The notes under the pieces: model-generated
What the model was told of the DNA's origin: nothing
The model's input: the letters and a program-made list of their open reading frames with translations, nothing else
Databases searched by the model: none
Virus record (IMG/VR): IMGVR_UViG_3300036865_000084
Origin: an uncultured virus (IMG/VR IMGVR_UViG_3300036865_000084)
Taxonomy: Duplodnaviria > Heunggongvirae > Uroviricota > Caudoviricetes
Reading direction: 5' to 3' (one strand)
Length of the DNA stretch: 20,000 bases
Translations under genes and position numbers: made by a program
In this document: piece by piece, positions 3,310 to 17,304 of the stretch
Layout: each line of letters begins with the position of its first letter
Position numbering within the stretch: position 1 is the stretch's first letter

Positions 3310-3663
3310 CTAGAGCTTCATCGCCCGCCGCACGCTCGCGGCCTTCGGGATGTCCGACGCATCGTTCGGCGCGCACGCGTCGCACCAGTAGCCGGCGACG
3401 AGCCGCCGCGTCGCGGGGCCGGCGCACTTGCCGCACGGGGTCACCAGAAGCAAAAGATCGTGAATGAGCTCGTTACGGCCGTTGATCTGGAGCTCGACGA
3501 CGCGGCCGAGGCCCTCAAGCAAACTCGCCGTCACCTCGTCGGCGCGCTGGCGCGCGAGCCGCGCCTCGTGGTCGATTCGGACGAGCAAGGCGTCGAGGCT
3601 GAAGGTCTCGACGCTGGACTTCGACCGCGGAGAGTCAGGGCGCGTATCCGGCTCATCGGGCAT
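3310..3663 (-). CDS. Hypothetical protein with C-terminal CxxC...CxxC zinc-finger-like motif
   Basis: PCGKC...WCDAC. Start moved from 3705 to ATG 3663 because TATACT lies 7 nt upstream and this removes the head-to-head overlap with the selenoprotein gene. Confidence 0.65.
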   Translation of the reverse strand: MPDEPDTRPDSPRSKSSVETFSLDALLVRIDHEARLARQRADEVTASLLEGLGRVVELQINGRNELIHDLLLLVTPCGKCAGPATRRLVAGYWCDACAPNDASDIPKAASVRRAMKL

Positions 3664-3668
3664 CGGAT

Positions 3669-3680
3669 CGAGTATACTCG
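3669..3680. promoter_or_regulatory. Palindromic bidirectional -10 element CGAGTATACTCG
   Basis: Perfect 12-bp palindrome giving TATACT on both strands, 6 nt before ATG 3685 (+) and 7 nt before ATG 3663 (-). Confidence 0.65.
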
Positions 3681-3684
3681 CGTC

Positions 3685-3897
3685 ATGGTCGTCAGAATTC
3701 TCCATTGCTCGATCTGAGGCTACAAGACGAAGGCCGCCGGTCTGGCGGCTGCGCTCCGCGCCAAAGGTGCTGAGGTGACGCTCGGTCTCGGCAACCGCGA
3801 GGCGTTCGACGTCATTGTCGACGGGGAGCTCGTCTACTCGAAGCTCGAGGACGGGCTACTCACGAACGATGCCATTCTGAAACGGATGGGCGTGTAG
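3685..3897 (+). CDS. SelW/SelT/SelH (Rdx family) selenoprotein, CxxU motif, TGA at 3715-3717 read as selenocysteine
   Basis: Reading through the TGA gives MVVRILHCSI-U-GYKTKAAGLAAALRAKGAEVTLGLGNREAFDVIVDGELVYSKLEDGLLTNDAILKRMGV* (70 aa). CxxU-GY and FDV.VDG.LVYSK are Rdx hallmarks; SECIS-like hairpin immediately downstream. Missed by the ORF track. Confidence 0.9.
3715..3750 (+). promoter_or_regulatory. Bacterial SECIS element
   Basis: Stem GCCGCC (3733-3738) / GGCGGC (3744-3749) plus G3732.U3750; apical loop GGUCU follows a 21-nt spacer after the UGA; resembles the GGUC loop of the E. coli fdhF SECIS. Confidence 0.8.
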
Positions 3898-4524
3898 ATA
3901 CGCGACCGCGCTCGGACGATTGAGGCGCTTGTCGGCCGCGAGACCGAGCCACGGCTTCGACGGGAGACTCCACGCGCCGGGGGCGTGAATGAGCAAGTCG
4001 AGCGCTGTCGCCGCGCGTGCGCGGTCCATCCCCTTCCATTCGTGAATCTGCCATGGCCCGAAGGCGAGACCTTCGTCTTCGTTGCCGACGTGCCGCGGGT
4101 TCTTCGCCAAAACACTCTCGCGATGGGCGATGAAGATCAAGCTGACGACGTACTCCGCTTGCTCCTTCACGCCCGCGGCTTCGACGGCGTCAGCGCACTC
4201 GTTCGCGAACGTCGTCCAGCGCGCGAGCCGATCCTCTTTCGTCTCGAGGTTTCTCTCGGCGTACGCCGGCATCAAGCCGACGACGGCGTCGACGGCGTAG
4301 CGGTGGAGCGCGTCGGGAGGCGGCACCTCGGAGGCGGCGGCGGCGGGCTGAGGCGGCGCCGCGGCTGTCGGCGGCACCGCGATCGATGTCGGCGCCACCG
4401 GAGCTACCGCGGCAGGTAGCGCCAGATCGGGAATCGGGCTCGCCTCCGACATCATCAAGCGCATCACGAGCGCAGAGCCGATGAGAACGAACCCGAGAAA
4501 CGCGACGGTGGCGATGAGTTTCAT
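3856..4524 (-). CDS. Membrane-anchored lysozyme-like / lytic transglycosylase-like protein
   Basis: ATG 4524 (MKLIATVAFLGFVLIG, signal or anchor); Pro/Ala linker; IAHRES (catalytic Glu-Ser-like) followed by DEGLAFGPWQIH (GLMQ-like motif). Confidence 0.6.
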   Translation of the reverse strand: MKLIATVAFLGFVLIGSALVMRLMMSEASPIPDLALPAAVAPVAPTSIAVPPTAAAPPQPAAAASEVPPPDALHRYAVDAVVGLMPAYAERNLETKEDRLARWTTFANECADAVEAAGVKEQAEYVVSLIFIAHRESVLAKNPRHVGNEDEGLAFGPWQIHEWKGMDRARAATALDLLIHAPGAWSLPSKPWLGLAADKRLNRPSAVAYLHAHPFQNGIVRE

Positions 4525-4567
4525 GCGGGCGACGCTGCCACGAGGCGGAGCGCGCGGCAAGCGCTGT

Positions 4568-5512
4568 TCAGCCTCCGCCGGCCGGCTCGCTGAAGCCCGG
4601 AGCGCTCGCCTCGATGTAGACCGCGAGGCCCTCTGCGTCGCCGGCGAAGCGCTGAAGATCGACGTGTGTCGCGATGCCGGGGCACGTGCCCGTGTCGCTG
4701 TACTGGTGGAAGTCGTAGCTCGGCGTCGCCGGCAGGCGCACGCCGTAGTGCGCGATCGAGAGGTCGGCGGCAACGCCGTAGAGGTTCATGCTCTTCAAGA
4801 GCGTGTCGCCGATGTAGAGGACGGGCTGCCGCATCGACAGAATCGTCAGCGCGTCGATGCACACAAGCACCTCGTCGCGCGTCGGCGTCACATACCGACC
4901 GTTCACGAGGTACGGCTCGACGTCGATCATCGGCGGGAGCTCTCCCGGGTCGTCGCCGAGCTGCGCGACGAAGTGCTGCATTTGAAGCTTCACGTCGACG
5001 CCGGTGTAGAGGAAGTGGTAGGCGCCGCGGGGGAGGCACCCCTTCGAGTCGGGCCAATTGTCGACGAACGTCTTGTCGACGCCCGAGGCTCCCATCGTCG
5101 CGCGGATGTACGCGTAGAGCTTCTGCCGCCAGTAGAGCGGCGGGGCCGAAGCCGCTTTCTTCCAGTCGATGCTCTTCTGATACTCGCTGACGTCGATGCC
5201 TTCGGCGGGCATCGACACGACGTTCGTATCGGTGATGTCGCCGGTGACTTCGTAGATGGTGACGCCGCGGTGGCGGATGTGATTCTGGAAGTCGGGCGGA
5301 TGAACGTTGACCCACGCAAGGAGCGGTACGCCAGACTTCGCGTCGACGGTGAACTCCCCCGTCGTCGATTGGAAGAGATCCAAGGGCCCGTGGAGAATAT
5401 CCACAGCCCACGCGCTGATCGCGGGCGTCACCTCGCTGTCGTGGAGGGGACGGCAGCCGCCCGGGGGCGGAGGGTTCGGCGGCAGCGGCAACAGCGTCGC
5501 AGGTTGCGTCAC
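4568..5512 (-). CDS. GH25 muramidase (endolysin) with extra N-terminal domain
   Basis: GIDVSEYQ..IDW, YIRATMG, RGAYHF, PPMIDVE (DxE), HQYSDTG..PGI...VDL; GTG 5512 overlaps the upstream TGA. Confidence 0.92.
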   Translation of the reverse strand: MTQPATLLPLPPNPPPPGGCRPLHDSEVTPAISAWAVDILHGPLDLFQSTTGEFTVDAKSGVPLLAWVNVHPPDFQNHIRHRGVTIYEVTGDITDTNVVSMPAEGIDVSEYQKSIDWKKAASAPPLYWRQKLYAYIRATMGASGVDKTFVDNWPDSKGCLPRGAYHFLYTGVDVKLQMQHFVAQLGDDPGELPPMIDVEPYLVNGRYVTPTRDEVLVCIDALTILSMRQPVLYIGDTLLKSMNLYGVAADLSIAHYGVRLPATPSYDFHQYSDTGTCPGIATHVDLQRFAGDAEGLAVYIEASAPGFSEPAGGG

Positions 5513-5793
5513 GTCGTCTGCTTTCGCGCTTGCACCGCGCCCGCGAACCCCGTGACGAGCCATGCCGCGAGGCCGAGCCCCGCAGTCGCGAGCCCGGCTT
5601 CACGCCAGCGAGGGGATAGCGCGGCGGTGACGAGCCCGCCTCCCGCCGCCAGCGCGAGCCCGGCTTGCGGATTCGCGACCAAGGCGCCCGCGCCTGCGCC
5701 GAGCGCCAACGCGCCGAGGCCGAAGGCGACGTTTCCGATCGAAGTCGTCGGCGGCGACAACGGGTTTTCGCGGCGACGCTTCGCGAGCTTCAT
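5509..5793 (-). CDS. Small Gly/Ala-rich multi-pass membrane protein (holin-like or virion membrane protein), 94 aa
   Basis: ATG 5793 (MKLAKRRRENPLSPP...), 2-3 hydrophobic helices; coupled by ATGA upstream and GTGA downstream to the GH25 lysin. Confidence 0.7.
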   Translation of the reverse strand: MKLAKRRRENPLSPPTTSIGNVAFGLGALALGAGAGALVANPQAGLALAAGGGLVTAALSPRWREAGLATAGLGLAAWLVTGFAGAVQARKQTT

Positions 5794-5960
5794 CGCTGGG
5801 GCCTCACTGGGCCGCGCCGAGGCGCGCGGCTCGAGTTGCCCATGCCGTCGGCGACACTGCCTCCATGGCCCGCCGTCAGATCGGCGATCGTGCCGAGGAA
5901 GACGAGCTCGGGCTTCACATAGGGCTTCTTGACGGGCTGCTTCTTCTCGTCGTCGGGCAT
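5790..5960 (-). CDS. Lasso-peptide-type RiPP precursor (56 aa)
   Basis: MPDDEKKQPVKKPYVKPELVFLGTIADLTA|GHGGSVADGMGNSSRAPRRGPVRPQR*: exact YxxPxLxxxGxxxxxT leader, Thr at -2, core Gly1 and Asp8. Own TG-a-TACGCT -10 element 6 nt upstream; ATGA overlap with the next gene. Below the ORF-track size cut-off. Confidence 0.85.
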   Translation of the reverse strand: MPDDEKKQPVKKPYVKPELVFLGTIADLTAGHGGSVADGMGNSSRAPRRGPVRPQR

Positions 5961-5985
5961 GCCTCGAGCGTATCATGAAGCCAGG
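5961..5985. promoter_or_regulatory. Divergent promoter in a 25-bp gap (overlapping -10 elements)
   Basis: Minus strand TACGCT (5972-5967) with upstream TG, 6 nt before ATG 5960; plus strand TATCAT (5971-5976), 9 nt before ATG 5986. Confidence 0.5.
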
Positions 5986-6639
5986 ATGGCGCTCGACCCC
6001 GACTTCTTCCCCGACTTGCGCGCCGTCGCCGCAAGCCTTCAGGCGAACCCCGCGGACGTGATGCTTGTGCTCTACGGAGAATCTGGGTTGGATCCCGCCT
6101 CCCATCGCGCGGGCTCTGACTACTACGGTATCAATCAGATGAACGGCGGCTACTTGCGACGCGCGGGCATCGACCCCGCGGACTACCTCACGTGGCCCGC
6201 GTCGCGGCAGCTCGACGCCGTCGTCGCGCCGTTTCTGAAAGGGCTCGTGGCGAGTCAGCTCAAGAAGCCCGTGCGAAGCGCGGGGGTGCTCGAGGCCCTG
6301 AACCTCTATCCCGCCGCCGTCGGCAAGCACGGCGACGCGCCCGACGCCATCGTCATCGACGGAAATTCAAACGACGCCGCGGAGCGCGCCGCATATCGTG
6401 CGAATCAAGCGCTCGATCAAGATCACTCGGGCGCGATCACGATCTCGGATCTCGACACATGGCTTCTCACGCGCTCGAAAGACAAGCCGTATCAACAGGC
6501 GCTCGCGCAACTCGGCGGCGCGCCAACGCCTTCGCCCCCGACTCAAAAAAGCAGCATCACGGGCGCCTTCGGCAAGGCGTTCGCGATCATCGGAGCGGCG
6601 AGCTTCTTTGCGTGGGCGCTGAGGAAGAGACGCGTGTAG
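5986..6639 (+). CDS. Lytic transglycosylase-like protein with C-terminal membrane anchor
   Basis: VMLVLYGESGLDP, YYGINQM, AYRANQALDQDHSGAITISDL (EF-hand-like) as in phage SLT-type lysins; ends with Pro linker, TM helix and RKRRV. Confidence 0.8.
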   Translation: MALDPDFFPDLRAVAASLQANPADVMLVLYGESGLDPASHRAGSDYYGINQMNGGYLRRAGIDPADYLTWPASRQLDAVVAPFLKGLVASQLKKPVRSAGVLEALNLYPAAVGKHGDAPDAIVIDGNSNDAAERAAYRANQALDQDHSGAITISDLDTWLLTRSKDKPYQQALAQLGGAPTPSPPTQKSSITGAFGKAFAIIGAASFFAWALRKRRV

Positions 6640-6648
6640 GCTCAGCCC

Positions 6649-7470
6649 ATGGGCCAATTCACCAACTCGTGGCGCCTGCGCGTCCGGCGTCTCGAATACC
6701 TCATCGAGCGCGCCTTGCGCGCCGGTCAGGCGGTCGCCAACGCGTGGCTCCAGGGCGGCAACGCGTTCGGCGCCACGGGGGTCTTCGGCACGCTCGACAA
6801 TAACCCCGTCAACGTCATCACGAACAGCGTCACGCGGTTCGCGTTCGACACGAGCGGCAACATCGTGCCGGCAGTCGACAACAGCGGCTCCGTCGGAACG
6901 TCGGCGCGCCGCTGGGGGTCGTTCATCGGCGTCAGCGTCACCGCCGGCGGAGGCGCCAGCATCATCACGGTGAACCCCGCGGCTGGGCTCGTCGTCCGCT
7001 GGGGCGCGACGCAAGCGGCGCTCGCCGCGGGCGACATCGGCATGGACCTCGCGACGGGGCGCGGGACGCTCTTCGTCGGCGGCGTGAGCCAGGAGATGGC
7101 GGTTTTGGGGGATCTCCCCGGCGGCGGCGCGGCGACGTTCCCCGCGACCATCACATCAGCCTCACCGCAGTACACCGCCATCGGCACAGATCGGCTGATC
7201 GAGGTCGACGTCTCGGGAGGGCAGCCCTCCGGCGGCCTGCCGATCAAGTTCGACGCCGCTGCCACTACCGGCACGCAGCATACCGTCAAGGTCGTCGCCG
7301 GAGACGCCGCGGTCAACACCGTCGGAGTCAGCGGCAACGGACAAAACATCGAGGACCCCAACAACCTGGGGACGTTCACCGCCTCTACCGTCTTCATCAA
7401 GTCGCCCGGCGGCGCCGTCACGTGGATGTTCGACGCCAACAACCGCTGGGCCGTCATCGCGAGCGCATGA
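6649..7470 (+). CDS. Putative fibre/spike-like virion protein
   Basis: Gly/Thr/Asn-rich beta-type sequence; WLQGGNAFGATGVFGTLDNN...RFAFDTSGNI.P...SVGTSARRW resembles segments of tail-fibre-domain proteins; TAGGCT 6 nt before the ATG. Confidence 0.65.
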   Translation: MGQFTNSWRLRVRRLEYLIERALRAGQAVANAWLQGGNAFGATGVFGTLDNNPVNVITNSVTRFAFDTSGNIVPAVDNSGSVGTSARRWGSFIGVSVTAGGGASIITVNPAAGLVVRWGATQAALAAGDIGMDLATGRGTLFVGGVSQEMAVLGDLPGGGAATFPATITSASPQYTAIGTDRLIEVDVSGGQPSGGLPIKFDAAATTGTQHTVKVVAGDAAVNTVGVSGNGQNIEDPNNLGTFTASTVFIKSPGGAVTWMFDANNRWAVIASA

Positions 7471-8996
7471 AAGCCATGAAAAACCATCTCGCTCTTCTCG
7501 TCGCGCTGTTTTTGATCGCGTGCCCCGGCGATACGACGCCTGTCGCCGTCGACGCCGGCGCGAAGCCTGCGCCTACGGATGCACCCCCGCCGCCTCTGCC
7601 GCTCGACAACGCGCCGGCGCAGCCGACGCCCGACTGGATGCTCAAGCCGCGGCCGCCGCTCGGCAACGTCAGAGCCGCCGGCACGCGCCCGCCCATCATC
7701 CCCGCGAGCTGGACGGTGCCCGCGTGGTTCATCGATCCTGCGAATAGTTCTGGTGCCGCGAGCGACAACAATACCTGCACGACATCGGGAGCTCCGTGCC
7801 TGACGTACGCCGAAATAGCGGCGCGATGGGGCACGTACTTTCCCAGGCTTCGACAGACGACCACGTTCACGTGGATGTCGAGCCACACCGATGGCACGGA
7901 TCCTGTCATCCAGAACCCGTACCTCGAGAACGGCGCGTCGCTCTTCAACAACGGGACGTTGGTGCAGACGTGCACGGGCACATTGGCTGGCGTCGTTGCC
8001 AAGAATCGGAACACGCCGCAGCTCCTCAACGCGACGTTGCCGGCGGGAGCGGCGATCAATCAGCTCATCATCAACACGACCCACGCTTCGCGCGCCTGGA
8101 CGTACACGTCGCTCGGAGCCGGCGCCTTCTCGATCTCGCAGCCGCTCGTCAGCCAAACGTTGCCGCACAACTTTATCTTAGCGGGCTCCGAAGTCGACAC
8201 GTGGGCTAACACCGATGCCGTCACGTGCAACACGCTCTCGAACATCAACTTCGTGCAGCTTTATCCAACGGTCACGGACCTCGGAACTGGATCCGCGAAC
8301 GCGGGGATCTACCTGCAACAGATCGGGGTCTTTGCCCCGTTTTCGACCTCGGATCTCGTCCTCATCAACAGTCAGGTCCGCTTCTTCGAGGTATTCTCGA
8401 ACAAGGGGATACAGACGGTCCTCTCGACAAGTAATGCGACGAATGGCGTCTACAACACCGACGTCCTCGGGAACTTTCAGAAGCAAACATGCGCGCAAGG
8501 AAGTACGGCGTTCGTTGGCGGTATCGCGCGCGGCCCACAGCTCTCCGGATGCACCGTCATCATTGACGGCGACGCAATCGCTGCTGCGACCAACAACATC
8601 ATTCAAGGGCTTTCATCGACTGTTGCCGGCGTTACCGGCCTCGGTCTCGTCTACATCGAATCAGGCAAGTCGCTCCAAGCTTCCGCCGGCGCTACCGGTA
8701 TCGCCAATAACCTCTCCATCGGCACACCGATCCTCTGGGGTCCAGGTAACTTTCGCCTCGTACAGACTGCGCACGTGACCTATCCAACAGGCGCCGGCTC
8801 GACGACATTCATCCAAACTGGCGCGTTCACGATCAACGGATTCACGACGGCGTGCGGGCACTCCAACGCGAACAACCCCGACGTCATCAACTGCGCCATC
8901 AACATCACCGGCGCGAATCTCGATGCCGCTCAAGGCATCGCGGGCTTCGGCGGTAACGCGTTCATCCCCGGCGGCGGCGGCATCTCGACGTTCTAG
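7467..8996 (+). CDS. Putative spike/adhesin-like beta-rich protein with lipoprotein-like N-terminus
   Basis: ATG 7467 (ATGA overlap); LALLVALFLIA-C lipobox-like; Pro linker; WFIDP...SDNN....APCLTYAE motif typical of the cap preceding beta-helix domains. Confidence 0.7.
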   Translation: MKAMKNHLALLVALFLIACPGDTTPVAVDAGAKPAPTDAPPPPLPLDNAPAQPTPDWMLKPRPPLGNVRAAGTRPPIIPASWTVPAWFIDPANSSGAASDNNTCTTSGAPCLTYAEIAARWGTYFPRLRQTTTFTWMSSHTDGTDPVIQNPYLENGASLFNNGTLVQTCTGTLAGVVAKNRNTPQLLNATLPAGAAINQLIINTTHASRAWTYTSLGAGAFSISQPLVSQTLPHNFILAGSEVDTWANTDAVTCNTLSNINFVQLYPTVTDLGTGSANAGIYLQQIGVFAPFSTSDLVLINSQVRFFEVFSNKGIQTVLSTSNATNGVYNTDVLGNFQKQTCAQGSTAFVGGIARGPQLSGCTVIIDGDAIAAATNNIIQGLSSTVAGVTGLGLVYIESGKSLQASAGATGIANNLSIGTPILWGPGNFRLVQTAHVTYPTGAGSTTFIQTGAFTINGFTTACGHSNANNPDVINCAINITGANLDAAQGIAGFGGNAFIPGGGGISTF

Positions 8997-10387: not shown

Positions 10388-10454
10388 AGATCCGATTCTA
10401 CCCGGCTGCCGCGAATCGTCTACGACAGCCCGCCAATCGTCTATGATGCCTGTC
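10388..10454. promoter_or_regulatory. Divergent promoter region with AATCGTCTAYGAY direct repeat
   Basis: TAGAAT (minus, 10400-10395) and TATGAT (plus, 10442-10447), each 7 nt from an ATG; repeat copies start at 10414 and 10435. Confidence 0.55.
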
Positions 10455-11069
10455 ATGTCTCCCGAGACCGCACGCCTCTATCGAACCATCGACTACGTCC
10501 TGCCGACCCTGCCCGGGTGGTGCGCACCGGAGAAGGGCAAGAAGATGGCCGAGGTCATCCTCGAAAACGAATCGGAGGTCTGCGTTGAGCTCGGCGTCTT
10601 CGGCGGACGGAGCCTCGTCGCGATTGCACTCGCTTTGAAGGCACAACGAAAGGGCCGCGTCTTCGGGGTCGACCCCTATACCGCCGCGGCGGCGCTCGAG
10701 GGCACCAACGATCCCGAGAACGACGCCTGGTGGCGGAAGCTCGATCACGAACAGATCCACGCTGCCGCCGAGCGCGTGCTCGACGATCTCGAGCTCTCGA
10801 AGTTCGCGATCATCCTTCGAGCGCGCTCGCAAGACGCATCTCGGAACTGGCCGTCGATCGATTTGCTGCACCAGGATTCCAATCACTCCGAAGAGGTGTC
10901 GTGCGCCGAGGTCGAGCTCTATGCGCCGGTCCTCAAGCCCGGCGGCATCTGGATCATGGACGACACTAACTGGCAGACGACGCGCAAGGCGCAAGACAAG
11001 CTTCTCGCGCTCGGCTTCACTGCGCAGCACCGCGAGGAGTCGTGGGCGATTCTGCGAAAGCCTCTGTGA
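10455..11069 (+). CDS. Class I SAM-dependent methyltransferase (Methyltransf_24-like)
   Basis: LPGWC..EK, VELGVFGGRS, GVDPY, IDLLHQDSNH, LKPGGIWIMDD. Confidence 0.88.
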   Translation: MSPETARLYRTIDYVLPTLPGWCAPEKGKKMAEVILENESEVCVELGVFGGRSLVAIALALKAQRKGRVFGVDPYTAAAALEGTNDPENDAWWRKLDHEQIHAAAERVLDDLELSKFAIILRARSQDASRNWPSIDLLHQDSNHSEEVSCAEVELYAPVLKPGGIWIMDDTNWQTTRKAQDKLLALGFTAQHREESWAILRKPL

Positions 11070-11082
11070 ATCGCGAAGCCGG

Positions 11083-11691
11083 TTACAGCAGCTCGCGTAG
11101 ACGATTCAGCCACCACGACGTATCAGGCAGCCCGACGATACGGCTCGTGAAGAACGTCAGTGTGCGGCGCCCGTAAAGTTCATTCCCCGCGGTGGCACGC
11201 AGGCGAGCCGTCTCCTCGGGCACATGGTCGAGCCCTGCGGCTTTGAAGCGTTCGACCCAATACGACTCCACCTGCTCGTTGACGTGGTGGTGGCCGCCCT
11301 GTCCCGGGGTCGCGAAGGTGATGCAGACGTGGCGGCAGCGCTGAAGCGCCGCCATCCAATTACACATGTACTTCGCCTCGACGTGCTCGACGAACTCGGC
11401 GCTCCATCCGAGATCGTAGATGTCGATCGGCGTGAACGGGCCCGTCGTGAAGTCGTGGCCGACGACGGCGTCGCACCGCCGGTGCGCGAGGGCCGCGGGG
11501 TCGCCTTCGACGCCGAGCGCCTTGCCGACGCGCTCCTGAAACCAGCGGGTCGCGAAGCCGGCGCCGCACCCGACATCGAGCACGCTCTTGACGCCGTAGG
11601 TGGTGATGAGTCTCTCCCAGATGTCGGGGAGCCACGTGGTGACGTCGGGGCCATTGACGTTGGATCCACCGAGATGCGAGGGGGTTGTCAT
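11083..11691 (-). CDS. Class I SAM-dependent methyltransferase
   Basis: SVLDVGCGAG motif I, GVEGD, YDLGWSAEFVEHVE, ATPGQGGHHHVNEQ..YW, typical of glycan-locus methyltransferases. Confidence 0.9.
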   Translation of the reverse strand: MTTPSHLGGSNVNGPDVTTWLPDIWERLITTYGVKSVLDVGCGAGFATRWFQERVGKALGVEGDPAALAHRRCDAVVGHDFTTGPFTPIDIYDLGWSAEFVEHVEAKYMCNWMAALQRCRHVCITFATPGQGGHHHVNEQVESYWVERFKAAGLDHVPEETARLRATAGNELYGRRTLTFFTSRIVGLPDTSWWLNRLRELL

Positions 11692-11700
11692 AGGATTTTT

Positions 11701-12387
11701 CTACACCATCTTCTCATGCCGCGAGTCGGTTTGGTCCCACGGAAAACCGATCGGCGGCGGCGGATCCATTCGCGCGCTCGGCGAGCTTGGCCGCTGGATG
11801 AAGAGCCGGGGACTCAACGTGTACGAGTAGACGTCGTCTTTCTTGGACCACTCGGCGAGGATGCTGTCGACGTTGCCGATGTAGACGCGGCTTTCACATA
11901 GCCTGCGCGCGAACTTCCGAGACATCGCGTACGCGTGCGTCGTCAGCATGCCGCGGTTGCGGATGACATGTTTTCTAACGCGACACCTTGGCTCGCATTC
12001 GTAGCCGCCGCCGAGGTAGAGAAGGTCCCAACTCTCCGGCACCTCGTCGATCATGACCCCGAAGCGCTTCTCGAGCGTCGCGCCAGGACACGAATCGAAG
12101 ATGACGACTTCTTCTTGCGTCGGCTGGTAGCCGGCCTTGAGCAAGACCTCGCGCGTCGTCAGCATGAAGTCGTCTTCGAAGACGAGAAGACGATTCTCTA
12201 GCTTGCCGTCCGCGAGCTCTTCCCACAAAACCGTGTGGCTGTCGCACGGGCCGCCGACGGCGGGGAGGCGTTGGCACTTTTCGATGCCGCACATCGCCAA
12301 CTCTTTTTGCGACTCAGCCCATCTGTCCGGCCGGCGGTCGAGGTTGATGAGGAAGATCCGATCGAAGTACGAGTCGACGGTTTGCAT
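11701..12387 (-). CDS. Glycosyltransferase family 25-like
   Basis: FDRIFLINLDRRPDRW, SH..LW, LVFEDD, WDLLYLGG, TTHAYAMS. Confidence 0.88.
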   Translation of the reverse strand: MQTVDSYFDRIFLINLDRRPDRWAESQKELAMCGIEKCQRLPAVGGPCDSHTVLWEELADGKLENRLLVFEDDFMLTTREVLLKAGYQPTQEEVVIFDSCPGATLEKRFGVMIDEVPESWDLLYLGGGYECEPRCRVRKHVIRNRGMLTTHAYAMSRKFARRLCESRVYIGNVDSILAEWSKKDDVYSYTLSPRLFIQRPSSPSARMDPPPPIGFPWDQTDSRHEKMV

Positions 12388-12393
12388 CACATC

Positions 12394-13332
12394 TCACATC
12401 TCGCTGAGCGGCTGGTTGTCGACCCAGTGATGCGTCGGCGCAACCGGGATCGGAAACGGCTCCCCGCGAAGCGCGCGCTCGCGGAGCTCGCGGAGATTGA
12501 AGGCGTTGCCGAGCGTCCACGTGCGGCTCGCTTCGCGCTGGAGACGGGTCAGGAGCGCGTTGGAGCTGTAAGGGCCGTCGGGTCCCGGCCACGGCTTGTC
12601 GAGCCGGATGACGGGGTTATCGCCGTGTCCGAGCTCGTCTTCGACGGTGCCGCACGCGCGCGTGATTTTCATCGGGACCCCGAGCCGCTCGAGGCGCGTG
12701 CCGAAGTCCCAGTCTTCGCCGCCGATGGAGTCGTAGATTTCGTCCTGACCGTTCACCGCGAGCGCGTGCTCGATGGGCAAGGAGAACGTGCCGCCGTAGA
12801 GCCACGATCCGTAACACGGATGAAGCTTCTCGTCGGGGAGGCGCTTCAAGCGTGAGTCCTGACCGGCTTCGAAGCGGCCGTCGGCGGAAGGGCCGCCAGC
12901 GCGCCAGCTTCCGTCGGGGGAGCACTGAAGGTCGAGATACTTGCAAGTCGTGCCGGCGAGCACGTATCTGTTTTCGGCCGCGTGCAGGTGCGCCTTCAGC
13001 CAGCCAGGCAGCAAAACGGATAAGTCATCGACGAAGGCGATGTGGGGGTGTCGAGCGAGCGCCAGCGCGGTGTTCCGCGTGTTGGCCGCCGCGAAGTAAT
13101 CTTTCGTCGTGAGCCGATGGGGGCCTTGCCACACCGTCGGCTTCGGGGGGTGGTGCTCGATCGCGAAGCGGCCGTCGACGATGCGTTTGAAGTCGTCTCG
13201 GCGCGCGTCGTCAAGTTTCCCGTCGATGACGAGCACCTGCATCCCTGGCAAGACACCCTCGCGCGCGAGGCTCCAGACGAACCAGTCGAAGCGCGGGCGC
13301 TGGCGGAACGTCAGATAGGCGATCGTGAGCAT
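12394..13332 (-). CDS. GT-A fold glycosyltransferase (GT2-like)
   Basis: LTIAYLT, VLVID, AANTRNTALALA....IAFVDD (DxD-like), AVNGQDE.Y...GGEDWDFGTRL. Confidence 0.82.
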   Translation of the reverse strand: MLTIAYLTFRQRPRFDWFVWSLAREGVLPGMQVLVIDGKLDDARRDDFKRIVDGRFAIEHHPPKPTVWQGPHRLTTKDYFAAANTRNTALALARHPHIAFVDDLSVLLPGWLKAHLHAAENRYVLAGTTCKYLDLQCSPDGSWRAGGPSADGRFEAGQDSRLKRLPDEKLHPCYGSWLYGGTFSLPIEHALAVNGQDEIYDSIGGEDWDFGTRLERLGVPMKITRACGTVEDELGHGDNPVIRLDKPWPGPDGPYSSNALLTRLQREASRTWTLGNAFNLRELRERALRGEPFPIPVAPTHHWVDNQPLSEM

Positions 13333-13481
13333 AGCTTTGCGATGACGTCTTCGAGGTGACGGACGCGGTTCTCGATCGAGTTTCGGAACGCGCGCTCGCT
13401 CGGCGTCTCGTCACGTCTTGACCGCGCCGTTTCCTCGCGCAGCGCCGCCAGCGTTTGCCGCATGACTTCGTCCATTTCCAT
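13311..13481 (-). CDS. Small hypothetical coiled-coil protein (56 aa)
   Basis: MEMDEVMRQTLAALREETARSRRDETPSERAFRNSIENRVRHLEDVIAKLCSRSPI*; GAGGGGAG SD upstream; bridges the gap between two genes. Not in the ORF track. Confidence 0.5.
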   Translation of the reverse strand: MEMDEVMRQTLAALREETARSRRDETPSERAFRNSIENRVRHLEDVIAKLCSRSPI

Positions 13482-14517
13482 CGACTCCCCTCATCAAACA
13501 CGCGATGTCGAACTCGTCGACTTCCGCGAGCCAGGCTTCTTCGTCGTGTACGCCGAAGGAGAGCACGAGACGGTCCGGGTGTCTCGGGTGCCGCGCCATG
13601 CCGGCGCAGAACTCGACGCCGATGCGGCGGAAGTAAAACGGCGACGAGATGCCGGCGACTTTGAGATTTCTGTCGAACGCCACGAACATGTGCACGTAGA
13701 CGCGTCTCGCTTGAAGGATGATTGTCTCGTGCACGACCGCGAGGTAGCCGCCGAGCACCTCGACGAGCTGACTACTGCCGTGAAGATCGCCGAGCGGGCG
13801 GCACGGCAATGACTCCGAGACGGGCTTGGTCTCTCCCGGAGCGCGTACGACGGTCGGATCGACGCTGTAGATCCAGCGGAGCTTTCCGTTCGGCAGGATG
13901 ACGGGCATCCAATTCTTCTCGGCCCGGCCGGGTGTCTCGGTCACCTGCACGTAGGCGCGAGCGACGTCGAAGTCGTCCGTCAGCTCGACGAGAGCCATCT
14001 CCACGCGCCGCCCGTTGAGCACCGTCGCGCTCGCGCCGAGTCGGTTGCCGAGCGAGAAGAGCCGCATGTCTTCGTAGCCGCTCCGCGGGGCGAAGTCGTC
14101 GTTGCTGATCGTCTTCACGCGCCTGACGGCGAGGCTGCTAGTGAGCCGCAAGAAGAGATTCACCGTGTGCGGGCTCGGCGTCGACCCAGGCAGCCGGTAA
14201 TTCACGCAGCGCACGGTGCAAAGGAGCTCTCCCTTGTGCGCGACGACGGAGGGATTACACGGCCAGTAGCCATCGGGCACCGCGCTGAGCGGCAGCCCGA
14301 TCGGGCGAAGCTTCGTGCTCTTGCAGAGCGCCTGAAGGCGCGGAACCGGCGCCGCGTGCACGCGCGGAGACGACGCGGACACCGACATCGCGGCGGCGGG
14401 GATGGGCGCGGGCGCGACGGCGGGCGCCTCTTGCGTCTTGGAGAGGTTCAAGAAGTAGGCGCGGTTTTTCGCGGCCTGAATCGCGGCGGCGGCCTTGGCG
14501 CGCTGGGAGATCGCCAT
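13411..14517 (-). CDS. Beta-propeller glycoside hydrolase-like protein (GH130/GH43/DUF377-like)
   Basis: ATG 14517; CNPSV..VRCVNY, GYEDMRLF, EKNWMP, GSSQLV, YLAVVHE, PFYF...GVEFCAG, SFGVHD. Confidence 0.75.
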   Translation of the reverse strand: MAISQRAKAAAAIQAAKNRAYFLNLSKTQEAPAVAPAPIPAAAMSVSASSPRVHAAPVPRLQALCKSTKLRPIGLPLSAVPDGYWPCNPSVVAHKGELLCTVRCVNYRLPGSTPSPHTVNLFLRLTSSLAVRRVKTISNDDFAPRSGYEDMRLFSLGNRLGASATVLNGRRVEMALVELTDDFDVARAYVQVTETPGRAEKNWMPVILPNGKLRWIYSVDPTVVRAPGETKPVSESLPCRPLGDLHGSSQLVEVLGGYLAVVHETIILQARRVYVHMFVAFDRNLKVAGISSPFYFRRIGVEFCAGMARHPRHPDRLVLSFGVHDEEAWLAEVDEFDIACLMRGVDGNGRSHAANAGGAARGNGAVKT

Positions 14518-14563
14518 GTCGAAGTCATACTCCCGAGGGCGCGCTGCGGCTATACTCAGGCGC

Positions 14564-15241
14564 GTGAACGAGCGGCTTCTCTGGGTCGGCGGACTCGTAC
14601 TCGGCGGTGTTGCCGTCGCAGCTGGCGTCGCCGCGGCGACGAAACCGAAGCAACAGTTAGCGCCGTCACCGGGCGGGTGCGCGCCGCAGCCCCCGCAGCC
14701 GTTCTTGATACGCACGAACTACCTGAAGACGCCGGGCGGTCTTCCGGCGGCGAACAAGTACCGCACCGAGAAGTACGGCTACTTGCCAGGGCTGACGGAT
14801 TCGAGCTGGAATCCGGCGACGGCCGCCTCGAACGCCGTCCCGACGACGTTCTTCGGGCTACCGATCACGCTCAACAGGCGCGTCGTGCCTGTCCTCAAAT
14901 GCGTCGAGCAGGTCATCAAGAGCGAGTGTGTCGCGACCCTGTACACGCCGCGCGCGCTCTCTGGCCTCCGGAACTATAACAGCTACCACGGCGGCGAGAT
15001 CTCCAATCATATGTGGGGCATCGCCATCGACATCGATCCAGATCGCAACCCGTGCTGCGGCTGCGTGGGGCACTGGGCCAACGACCCGCGGTGCGCTCGA
15101 CCGTTCGAGCAGCAGTACGACCTACCGAACTGCTGGATCGGTGTGTTCGAGCGCTACGGCTTCTACTGGCTCGGCCACGACGAGCACATTCGCGACACGA
15201 TGCACTTCGAGTTTCTCGGCGACCCGGAGCTAGTCGGATGA
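14564..15241 (+). CDS. M15-family zinc peptidase (peptidoglycan peptidase) with N-terminal TM anchor
   Basis: GTG 14564 with TATACT 7 nt upstream; TM LLWVGGLVLGGVAVAAGVAAA; SNHMWGIAIDID (SxHxxGxAxD) and DTMHFE zinc motifs. Confidence 0.9.
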   Translation: MNERLLWVGGLVLGGVAVAAGVAAATKPKQQLAPSPGGCAPQPPQPFLIRTNYLKTPGGLPAANKYRTEKYGYLPGLTDSSWNPATAASNAVPTTFFGLPITLNRRVVPVLKCVEQVIKSECVATLYTPRALSGLRNYNSYHGGEISNHMWGIAIDIDPDRNPCCGCVGHWANDPRCARPFEQQYDLPNCWIGVFERYGFYWLGHDEHIRDTMHFEFLGDPELVG

Positions 15242-15915
15242 CGGACTGGCGCATCATCCAGCGTGGTGCGGCGCCGGGCCCCCTGGTGCTCGTCTACCAC
15301 TTGAACGAGCGCGCGAACGATGCGCTCCGGCTAGCTGCACCAACTGCGACGATCGCGAACGACACCGTTCACGGCTCGATGTACCAAGACGCCGAGACCA
15401 TCGACAAGAGCATCGCAGAGATCGGCGGAGGCCCCTACGCGCCGGTGGTGCTTGCGGGCTTCAGCGCCGGCGGTCTCGCGACGAGACGTGTCCTTGAGCA
15501 AGGCTCAGATCCAGATGCGCTCGTGATCGCCGACGGCACCTATGCGATGAGCGAGTCGCAGATGGCGGCGTGGAAGGCGTACGCCGCCAAGGCTCGCGCC
15601 GGCCAGCGCGTAATGCTCGCGTCGCACTCGGCGTACTCGGCACCCAACAACACATGGCACGTGCTTCAGGAGATCGCGGGGGTGCCGCTGCCGCTCAACG
15701 GGGAGAACCGATTCCAAGACGGAAACCTCATCATCTTGTCGTCGCCGACGGCGCATAACTACCACGGAGAGGTGCTGCTCCCGCGGATGGTTGGGGAAGC
15801 GCTCACAATGCTCGGGGCGCAGAAGCCAGCGCCCGAGAAGAAGCCCGCGCCGTGGGTCGCAGCGCTCGGCATCCTTGCGGCGGCGGGGGCGGCTGCGATA
15901 ATCATCAGGCGATGA
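15238..15915 (+). CDS. Alpha/beta-hydrolase fold protein with C-terminal membrane anchor
   Basis: ATG 15238 (ATGA overlap); VVLAGFSAGG nucleophile elbow; ends KPAPEKKPAP-WVAALGILAAAGAAAIII-RR. Confidence 0.75.
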   Translation: MTDWRIIQRGAAPGPLVLVYHLNERANDALRLAAPTATIANDTVHGSMYQDAETIDKSIAEIGGGPYAPVVLAGFSAGGLATRRVLEQGSDPDALVIADGTYAMSESQMAAWKAYAAKARAGQRVMLASHSAYSAPNNTWHVLQEIAGVPLPLNGENRFQDGNLIILSSPTAHNYHGEVLLPRMVGEALTMLGAQKPAPEKKPAPWVAALGILAAAGAAAIIIRR

Positions 15916-16067
15916 TCGAGCAACCCCGCATCGCCCGCGAGCTTGCTCGCCGCTTGCGCGAACGGCCCTCTGACGCGTCGGTGCGGGAAGACGCGGCGCT
16001 CGCGCTCGAGAGCTTGGCGGACCTCTACGAGAGGACGTTTCGGATGCTCGAGAGGCTCAAGAAGTGA
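15912..16067 (+). CDS. Small hypothetical helical protein (51 aa)
   Basis: ATGA overlap upstream and GTGA overlap downstream; MIEQPRIARELARRL... Confidence 0.6.
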   Translation: MIEQPRIARELARRLRERPSDASVREDAALALESLADLYERTFRMLERLKK

Positions 16068-16429
16068 AGCTCACCGATCCGTGGTTCGAGGCACACTTCA
16101 TCGCCGGCACGACCGCGCGCGGGCATCACGGCATCGACACGCTCGACGGCGCCGACGGCCTTCAGCTCTGGTGCCCGTGCGGCTACGGCAAGCCTGAGTA
16201 CCCGCTCGATGGCGCGCGCCCGCACGCTATCCTCGTGAGCTTCACGAACCCGCGCGGATGCGCGCCCGCGCCGCCGGAAGCCGGATCGCAGTCGCGCGAC
16301 GGCGGCCCGTCGCGCTGGGAGATCGTCGGCGGGGCCGGCCTTGACGACCTCACGCTCAAGCCGTCGATCGACGTAGGTACGCCGTCGTGCTGGCACGGCC
16401 ACATCACGAACGGCGAAGTGACGCCGTGA
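16064..16429 (+). CDS. DUF6527-like Cys/His protein
   Basis: LWCPCG...RW...G..LDDLTLKPSI....CWHGHITNGEV. Confidence 0.65.
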   Translation: MKLTDPWFEAHFIAGTTARGHHGIDTLDGADGLQLWCPCGYGKPEYPLDGARPHAILVSFTNPRGCAPAPPEAGSQSRDGGPSRWEIVGGAGLDDLTLKPSIDVGTPSCWHGHITNGEVTP

Positions 16430-17304
16430 GTATTTGCCTCTCCATGATCGTGAAGAACGAGGCTCACGTCCTCGGCCGCTGCCTCATGTCAGTCCGGCCC
16501 TATATTTCACGATTTTGCATCGTCGACACGGGCTCCACTGACGACACCCAACGCGTCATCCGGATGACGCTCGAGGACATCCCGGGCGAGATCCACGAGC
16601 GCGAGTTCAGGGACTTCTCGACGAATCGAAATGAGGCGCTCGCCCTCGCCGGAAAAAGCGGCTACGCGCTCGTCATGGACGCCGACGACGTCCTCGAAGT
16701 TCATCCCCCTGTCGCGCGTCTCACCGCCCCCGGCTATGCGGTCAGGGTCGACGACGATCCCCTCACCTACTACCGGACGATCCTCTTCAAGCTCGACGCC
16801 GGCTACGAGTACCGCGGCGTCGTGCACGAGAGTCTCTTCGGCCCCGTGCCCTCGAAGCTCGAGAGCGTCGTCTACAAGCGCATCGGCGGCGGCGCACGGA
16901 GCCTCGCTGGGCTCCAGAAGAAAGCCGCGCGTGACGCCGCCCTCCTCGAAGCCGTCACCGACCCCACGCCGCGCGACGTCTTCTACCTCGCGCTGAGCTA
17001 CCGCGACGCCGGTGAGCTCGAGAAGGCTCGCGAAGCGTACGCACGCCGGGTCTTCTTGGACGGCTTCGAAGAGGAGCGCTTCATCGCGGCGCTCGAGTTC
17101 GCGAAGCTCGAGGCGCGACTCGGCTCCGATCGAGACCTCGTCGTCGCGGCGTACATGCGAGCGCACGCGATGCGGCCGACGCGCGCAGAGCCTTTGCGCT
17201 ACCTCGCGCGCTATCTGGAATCCCTCGCCGACGGCATCAAAAAGCCGGATGACACTTTATTCATAGAGGAAGCAGCGTACACTCGAGCAGATGACCCGGC
17301 TTAG
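16426..17304 (+). CDS. GT2 glycosyltransferase with C-terminal TPR
   Basis: GTG 16426; ICLSMIVKNE, IVDTGSTDDT, DFSTNRNEAL, VMDADD, YRGVVHE, then FYLALSYRDAGELEKA TPR-like helices. Confidence 0.9.
   Translation: MSICLSMIVKNEAHVLGRCLMSVRPYISRFCIVDTGSTDDTQRVIRMTLEDIPGEIHEREFRDFSTNRNEALALAGKSGYALVMDADDVLEVHPPVARLTAPGYAVRVDDDPLTYYRTILFKLDAGYEYRGVVHESLFGPVPSKLESVVYKRIGGGARSLAGLQKKAARDAALLEAVTDPTPRDVFYLALSYRDAGELEKAREAYARRVFLDGFEEERFIAALEFAKLEARLGSDRDLVVAAYMRAHAMRPTRAEPLRYLARYLESLADGIKKPDDTLFIEEAAYTRADDPA

Follow-up and report, generated by a model that had tools for sequence, protein, structure and literature searches.

An orphan lasso-family precursor gene ahead of lysis-like genes in a phage-like 20-kb window

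Described lasso systems and the window

The precursors of peptides made by ribosomes and modified after translation (RiPPs) are usually viewed as parts of self-contained clusters, and among lasso peptides the kinase-associated clusters with a split B protein include the paeninodin type. To our knowledge, the phage-borne natural-product genes described so far come with their enzymes. Here we describe a 56-amino-acid (56-aa) open reading frame (ORF) with the features of a lasso peptide precursor that stands without lasso enzymes in a stretch of 20,000 nucleotides (hereafter the window) from an uncultured virus of the Caudoviricetes, IMG/VR record IMGVR_UViG_3300036865_000084. A close described counterpart is the bsf system of Bradymonas sediminis (BsfA/B1/B2/C/D/K/N), which, in the available parts of its description (PMC10368454), has the same Y(-17)xxP(-14)xL(-12) leader and the same Gly1-Asp8 ring logic. 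The resemblance extends to the relatives of the window ORF in bacteria, which come with B1, B2 and C proteins, an HprK-like kinase and an ABC exporter. Unlike bsf, the window holds the precursor only, and its leader has Thr(-2) instead of the Ile(-2) of Bsf; where bsf has a nucleotidyltransferase, 27 of the 52 bacterial loci described below encode a PRMT-like methyltransferase. Several relatives share at NCBI the name of the NF033521 family (P0058, P0064 and P0074 are each called "lasso RiPP family leader peptide-containing protein"), whose model is also the best curated one for the ORF, although the ORF itself falls under its cut-off.

On the viral side, a described parallel is sublancin on SPbeta (bioRxiv 10.1101/2020.10.01.322628), likewise a gene for a ribosomal peptide natural product on a phage. 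As far as the accessible part of that source goes, elements of this type carry precursor, modifying enzymes, immunity and transporter, whereas the 20 kb of the window carry a precursor only, joined to a lysis operon. Full-text literature searches, whose coverage falls short of most subscription journals, returned no account of a lasso precursor carried by a phage or virus, and no characterised member of the family of the window ORF was found in the literature searched. Bacterial RiPPs and phages are the subject of passages in PMC11118758, and the word "lasso" does not occur in the main text of PMC12360287 or of the sublancin preprint so far as these were accessible.

A lasso-family precursor alone among the window's genes

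The ORF runs for 56 codons on the minus strand, with the translation MPDDEKKQPVKKPYVKPELVFLGTIADLTAGHGGSVADGMGNSSRAPRRGPVRPQR (its parts are placed in Table 1). An exact lasso leader had been proposed in the first-pass annotation, and it is there: Y14, P17, L19, G23 and T29 all occupy the positions given for them. With cleavage after A30, Y14 becomes Tyr(-17), P17 becomes Pro(-14), L19 becomes Leu(-12) and T29 becomes Thr(-2), numbered in the way that PMC10368454 counts the residues of the lasso leader motif. The core is also as it had been described, with 26 aa from G31, an Asp at core position 8 (D38), no Cys and five Arg, and its predicted monoisotopic mass is 2658.34 Da for the linear peptide and 2640.33 Da once cyclised with the loss of water. 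In family alignments the Gly1 and Asp8 columns of the core are invariant or at least 90% conserved, and the length of 26 aa and the Arg/Pro-rich tail both fall within the family range (12 to 30 aa among unfused members). The GC content of the frame by codon position 1/2/3 is 0.69/0.52/0.82, which is coding-like and resembles that of neighbouring genes in a window of 60-68% GC. Hydropathy analysis finds no hydrophobic segment in the precursor, and public gene calls contain the ORF (P0001).

An exhaustive phmmer search of 1.84 billion representatives returned 15 other proteins at E<=1e-3, the E-values against small family peptides ranging from 1.7e-6 to 9.7e-4. Eleven of them are peptides of 50-78 aa with the common motif KKPY..P.L..LG.....T.G.GGS..DG, or more fully K/R-K/R-P-Y-x-x-P-x-L-x-x-L-G-x-x-x-x-L-T-x-G-x-G-G-S-x-x-D-G; three (P0003, P0005 and P0010) are multi-unit proteins, and one (P0002, 1351 aa) is repetitive and looks unrelated. 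Every invariant and near-invariant column of the family peptide alignment is kept in the window ORF. We made an IUPAC DNA pattern from these columns, which matched once in the window, at the precursor ORF, and in none of 200 shuffles. A family profile built from 22 cyclase-adjacent precursors, with the window sequence excluded, rated the ORF at 51.1 bits (E 2e-15), against 4.8 bits for the runner-up among 391 six-frame segments. Judged by its sequence, the ORF is a real gene for an intact lasso-family precursor, beyond a chance motif match.

The closest relative, P0004, is identical at 23 of 32 positions over the conserved block, and the closest genome locus (L041, Nitrospira) at 20 of 32. Since the nearest relative is no closer than this, the precursor is no fresh copy of any sampled gene. 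With the ORF as query, a word-indexed homologue search recovered nothing but the query; an exact 50-mer of it had no match in viral, genome or metagenome contig collections, and neither the phage records (50,697) nor the plasmids (72,556) gave a tblastn match.

In contigs sampled at one genome per species, the DNA pattern matched 52 loci from many phyla and groups, among them Myxococcota, Acidobacteriota, Nitrospira, Gamma- and Alphaproteobacteria, Cyanobacteria and Chloroflexota. The layout of the family is a K/R-K/R-P-Y-x-x-P-x-L-x-x-x-G-x-x-x-x-x-T-x leader followed by a predicted core beginning G-x-x-G-S/T-x-x-D-G, a core start that implies a Gly1-Asp8 ring. We clustered the neighbours of the 52 loci, scanned the representatives with Pfam and seeded enzyme hidden Markov models (HMMs) from the Pfam-verified proteins (Asn_synthase, Transglut_core3 and PqqD). 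Proteins that recur beside the precursors include the cyclase C (Asn_synthase/GATase, about 620 aa), a Transglut_core3 protein (B2) and a PqqD protein (the B1 RiPP recognition element, or RRE), together with a kinase that weakly resembles HprK, a PrmA/PRMT-like methyltransferase and an ABC transporter. With these Pfam-seeded HMMs the cyclase was detected in 46 of the 52 loci, B1 in 42, B2 in 38, the kinase in 39, the methyltransferase in 27 and the ABC exporter in 29. An earlier and cruder HMM set, partly contaminated by antisense ORFs, had placed a cyclase in 47 of the 52 loci, the extra one (L006) being a cyclase fragment at a contig end; by that set the cyclase lies no more than 200 bp from the precursor in 40 of the 47 loci and at most 2081 bp away. 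The cyclase is absent from L010, L012, L022, L031 and L040, three of which are short or end near the peptide gene.

The window has none of this machinery. The lack of lasso enzymes reported in the first-pass annotation holds across the 20 kb for cyclase, B1, B2, kinase and exporter alike: Pfam found no lasso enzyme among 26 window ORFs, and the six enzyme-family HMMs run over the 391 six-frame segments gave best E-values of only 0.09-0.8. An Asn-synthase-like cyclase, a B/B2 peptidase and an RRE beside the precursor mark a lasso cluster, and no such set lies within the 20 kb, the cyclase-free flanks of the precursor extending 5.8 kb on one side and 14 kb on the other. To go by its gene content, the window holds an orphan precursor that is not part of a lasso gene cluster there. 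The contigs come from three runs labelled wetland metagenome, and a single 75,123-base contig contains the window, which covers about bases 802-20801 of it (window base 3800 is record base 4601).

We also looked for further viral members of the family. The strict DNA pattern matched nothing in 2.9 million IMG/VR contigs, and two looser patterns gave eight loci in viral records, of which one, L077, is family-like; the other seven were rejected as chance matches that lie inside large ORFs or have no start. The L077 record is an IMG/VR record of 141,960 bp (CheckV 78% complete, 33% GC), and its stand-alone 53-aa ORF scores 47 bits on the family profile and 21.6 bits on lasso_leader_L3, against a cut-off of 19 bits. 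No PF00733 (Asn_synthase), PF05402 (PqqD) or PF13471 (Transglut_core3) domain was found in the whole record. Window and record share a small virus-borne ORF whose leader is of the lasso type, and both lack lasso enzymes (in the whole record for L077, in 20 kb for the window). The two differ in that L077 is AT-rich and its ORF lies directly behind a tRNA array (11 tRNAs in 16 kb), whereas the window ORF lies in a lysis module. The L077 core is Pro-rich with two Cys and has no Asp or Glu at positions 7-9, so that no canonical ring would be possible.

Surroundings of the precursor gene and side features of its family

The precursor heads a lysis-like string of genes in a phage-like context, as had been proposed, and an ATGA junction, a membrane protein and a GH25 lysin make up this arrangement (Table 1). 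The claimed ATGA overlap of the precursor stop with the start of the 94-aa ORF is present, and a Shine-Dalgarno (SD)-like GAGG lies 8 nt before the ATG of the 94-aa gene, inside the 3' end of the precursor. The 94-aa protein had been called holin-like; its position and hydropathy fit this, but it matches no holin family, and no Pfam, PHROG or NCBIfam model matched it at all. The next gene is the GH25 endolysin that had been recognized there, supported by PHROG endolysin families phrog_291 and phrog_6219 (best E 4.9e-19) as well as by Pfam. The GTGA overlap proposed between these two genes stands in part: the stop of the 94-aa gene does overlap a GTG at 5512, but the lysin has alternative starts at ATG 5563 and GTG 5431, the latter being the start implied by a 287-aa database gene call of the lysin. 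The 221-aa anchored protein beyond it is possibly part of the lysis string. On the other side of the precursor, the divergent 217-aa protein matches phrog_13530 (E 1.3e-8) and phrog_196 "baseplate hub" (E 7.5e-7). The two tail-like genes after it have nearest ESM Atlas clusters that are 100% viral (Uroviricota), with scores of 0.91 and 0.84 for the 273-aa and 509-aa proteins, and that represent T4 gp9/10-like N-domain and beta-helix families; these are leads only.

Table 1. Positions of the precursor gene, its neighbours and related features (window coordinates unless a locus is named)
Feature	Coordinates	Strand	Basis or remark
56-aa lasso-family precursor gene	5790..5960	minus	ORF list, GC at third codon positions (GC3) 0.82, phmmer relatives, family profile
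Precursor leader, residues 1-30	5871..5960
Predicted precursor core, residues 31-56	5793..5870
Precursor stop	5790..5792
94-aa Gly/Ala-rich membrane protein	5509..5793	minus	hydrophobic stretches 17-42, 43-61, 66-89 (three to four)
GH25 muramidase, endolysin	4568..5563	minus	Pfam Glyco_hydro_25 E 1.1e-18
221-aa protein, N-terminal hydrophobic anchor	3856..4521	minus	hydropathy; no family match
Divergent 217-aa protein, C-terminal hydrophobic stretch	5986..6639	plus	lysozyme-like C-terminal parts of baseplate-hub PHROGs
Tail-like gene, 273 aa	6649..7470	plus	ESM Atlas lead only
Tail-like gene, 509 aa	7467..8996	plus	ESM Atlas lead only
Wall-directed set	3856..4521, 4568..5563, 5986..6639, 14495..15241
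Methyltransferase and glycosyltransferase-like block	10443..17304
53-aa ORF of L077	L077:7971-8132	plus	family profile, lasso_leader_L3
S74-fused precursor	L005:7929-8333
S74-fused precursor	L015:7941-8324
S74-fused precursor	L022:7712-8128
S74-fused precursor	L026:1249-1620
S74-fused precursor	L036:7941-8318
S74-fused precursor	L039:7769-8140
S74-fused precursor	L045:7757-8119
S74-fused precursor	L047:7935-8339
S74-fused precursor	L050:7950-8333

We note that the sequence GCATGC at 5957..5962 holds two overlapping start codons set back to back, the precursor ATG (minus strand, 5960) and an ATG that is in frame with the divergent gene (plus strand, 5959). If the divergent gene started at 5959 instead of 5986, the coding regions would overlap and there would be no intergenic promoter space.

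Elsewhere in the window there are an M15 peptidase, an HNH endonuclease and several glycosyl- and methyltransferases. No housekeeping gene or tRNA occurs in the window, nor does a capsid, portal or terminase gene; a blastn search of 4400..7600 against phage records gave no match, and tblastn of three large window proteins against the 50,697 phage records gave two weak glycosyltransferase-like matches only. We consider it likely that the window is part of a tailed-phage genome or prophage. Wall-directed genes are unusually many for 20 kb, with the GH25 lysin, the lysozyme-like "baseplate hub" protein, the M15 peptidase and, among them, the 221-aa anchored protein. A further block combines two methyltransferases (Methyltransf_24/CmcI-like and Methyltransf_11) with four glycosyltransferase-like genes, namely GT25, GT7C-like, a 434-aa protein that is 24% identical to cyanophage mannosyltransferase-like genes, and GT2; the block may serve to modify host-surface or virion glycans.

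The closest relatives of the lysin are 73% (P0018), 58% (P0019) and 59% (P0020) identical to it. A search with the lysin found nothing in IMG/VR, and in Myxococcota genomes it found matches at E<=1e-20 in 6 of 401, at only 33-39% identity. The N-terminal domain of the lysin (residues ~27-107, outside the GH25 part) is 47-49% identical to ORFs of a Byssovorax genome (G005:C1121) and of four metagenome contigs (L066-L069) in which the GH25 part is missing; for a Byssovorax ORF the identity is 49% over the N-terminal 80 residues of the lysin. This domain may be a wall-binding module, and the likeness to Byssovorax may be a weak hint to a host in Polyangia.

Among the bacterial relatives, three features of the precursors stand out. 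In 9 of the 52 loci the precursor is fused at its C terminus to a Peptidase_S74 domain, which scores above the Pfam cut-off in all nine, and a cyclase adjoins eight of them, L022 being the one without. Peptidase_S74 is the self-cleaving intramolecular chaperone of phage tail fibres, and full-text literature searches found no paper that links lasso peptides with S74 or intramolecular chaperones; the fusions may represent an undescribed, self-trimming type of precursor. The multi-unit proteins P0005 (199 aa), P0010 (268 aa) and P0003 (111 aa) contain two to five tandem units each, every unit consisting of a stretch that resembles a lasso-type leader and, behind it, the beginning of the S74 motif (its first ~15-25 residues, S-D-x-R-L-K), and they look like multi-core precursors divided by self-cleavage sites. 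Finally, the cores of L003, L004, L008, L017, L020, L028 and L041, which belong to Nitrospira, Acidobacteriota and Polyangiaceae, have Gly/Met-rich tails that close with Cys-Leu. All seven of these loci contain the PRMT-like methyltransferase, and the Cys-Leu end may be a conserved site of C-terminal modification.

Proposed maturation in trans and rival readings

The reading we favour, to which we give slightly less than an even chance, is that a tailed-phage-like element has captured the precursor alone and set it before its lysis genes, and that the peptide is most likely matured in trans. The ATGA stop/start overlap would wire the captured precursor to the front of the lysis genes, so that the peptide would be made late in infection. 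Its leader would then dock on a B1 RRE encoded elsewhere, either by the host or in the 54 kb of contig that lie beyond the window, B2 would cut after Thr(-2)-Ala(-1), and the cyclase would join Gly1 to Asp8 to give a cationic lasso peptide of about 2640 Da with a net charge of about +4. Cell lysis would free the peptide, and no exporter would therefore be needed. What we infer in this scheme is that the gene is expressed, that its product matures in trans and is released, and whatever biological effect it may have. The first-pass annotation had likewise put forward maturation in trans by host enzymes, next to a decoy role; of its statements, the lasso-family membership, the absence of enzymes from the 20 kb and the lysis-like, phage-like context were borne out, whereas the -10 element was not.

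We modelled the docking step with a B1 protein of the family from Myxococcales (L006), and the complex prediction with the window precursor scored 0.55 against 0.00 for the best control, with a contact agreement of at least 93% and a partner pLDDT (predicted local distance difference test) of at least 55. In the calibration of this method, 116 of 157 solved complexes and 2 of 215 mismatched pairs came up to the mark; at 0.60 or under, only 18 of the 157 solved complexes did so, along with both of the passing mismatches. As structures of RRE-leader complexes have already been solved, the pass may come from likeness to these. The model lends weak support to the RRE competence of the window leader.

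Several findings weigh against capture with maturation in trans, and a number of them concern expression. The precursor was claimed to have its own -10 element, but this could not be reproduced: a scan for sigma-70-type promoters found no site in 3600..6700, and visual inspection shows no more than a 4-of-6 hexamer. The GAGG ahead of the precursor ends 1 nt before its ATG, a poor SD spacing. From that ATG to the ATG of the divergent gene there are 25 nt, and an untranslated precursor would leave a typical divergent promoter region of 192 nt between the lysis and tail genes. A place in a late lysis operon also leaves little time for maturation. As for the wider record, the absence of enzymes spans the 20 kb only, with ~54 kb of the contig lying outside; 18 metagenome loci have only the lysin in common with the window (35-48% identity) and contain no lasso-like ORF; and the pieces from the two other runs agree with the window letter for letter throughout their overlap, so there are no variants for a test of selection. 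The 52 loci were picked with a pattern that the ORF matches, so that agreement in the pattern columns comes by construction, and the unbiased evidence for the family is the exhaustive phmmer search. Lastly, the check with a lasso-leader HMM gave a divided result. The three top NCBIfam models for the ORF are all lasso models, the best being lasso_leader_L3 (NF033521), but all are under their cut-offs, and lasso_leader_L3 gives 16.4 bits (E 0.007, aligned residues 14-32) against a cut-off of 19 bits. When we ran this model on 39 of the 54 locus precursors, 23 passed, 11 were sub-threshold and 5 had no match, so that the cut-off misses true, cyclase-adjacent members and the score of the window ORF is ordinary for the family.

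The expression findings are also what a silent passenger would predict, that is, a decaying remnant that came from a host lasso cluster by illegitimate recombination, landed in a divergent promoter region, has no effect and is not yet degraded. The poor SD spacing, the lack of a promoter match and the narrow intergenic space that remains if the precursor is coding all suit such a remnant, as do the readable related loci, which share only the lysin with the window, and the existence of cyclase-free loci in the bacterial family (L010 and L022, with none within 4.6-8 kb). Yet the frame is unbroken between its ATG and its stop, which shares bases with the start codon of the next gene, its GC3 matches that of the neighbouring genes, and all invariant columns of leader and core have been kept despite a nearest relative with only 23 of 32 positions identical. 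We regard a silent passenger as unlikely, though of the alternatives it survives best.

An ordinary split cluster, with B1, B2 and C on the same ~75-kb element but outside the window, would agree with the small share of the contig that the window covers. In bacteria, however, the cyclase keeps within the 2081 bp measured across 47 loci, and mostly within 200 bp, and here the much longer flanks are free of it; nor does L077 encode a cyclase, PqqD or B2 domain in any part of its 142 kb. These distances make a split cluster improbable. To a similar degree, or slightly more so, we doubt that the peptide is a decoy, a competitive inhibitor that would occupy the B1 RRE of the host (or a dependent B2 or kinase) and stop the production of the host's own lasso peptide, any product being incidental. 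Its leader does have every residue for RRE recognition, and the modelled docking on a family B1 passes weakly, but the leader would suffice for such a role, and, as in true substrates, Gly1, the G-S block, Asp8 and Gly9 are all present in the core. That the ring-forming and conserved residues are kept favours a substrate over a leader-only decoy, and no anti-phage role of lasso peptides was found in the available parts of PMC11118758 and PMC12360287. A small protein of the lysis module (one that regulates the membrane protein, say) with a lasso likeness of no functional meaning, or a chance ORF, is very unlikely. In favour of this are the place of the ORF immediately ahead of the holin-like gene, to which it is translationally coupled, and the sub-threshold curated model; against it stand whole-library E-values down to 1.7e-6 against family peptides, 51 bits on the profile against 4.8 for the next frame, a motif found in 0 of 200 shuffles, and the absence of a hydrophobic segment and of any PHROG lysis family. 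We rejected the chance-ORF reading, given the phmmer relatives at E<=1e-3, the shuffles and the profile scores.

Returning to capture with maturation in trans, we suggest, more tentatively than for the window itself, a general version of it, in which viruses that carry a lasso precursor alone hijack the B1, B2 and C proteins of the host, express the peptide with their lysis genes and release it by lysis. The peptide could then act as an antibiotic or a signal to neighbouring cells, or as a block on the host's own lasso peptide, and the window and L077 would be two instances of a recurrent arrangement. If this is true, a virus that carries only the substrate would represent a new kind of host-machinery hijack or auxiliary gene, and it would provide a natural case of lasso enzymes accepting a foreign precursor in trans, with exporter-free release of the product by lysis.

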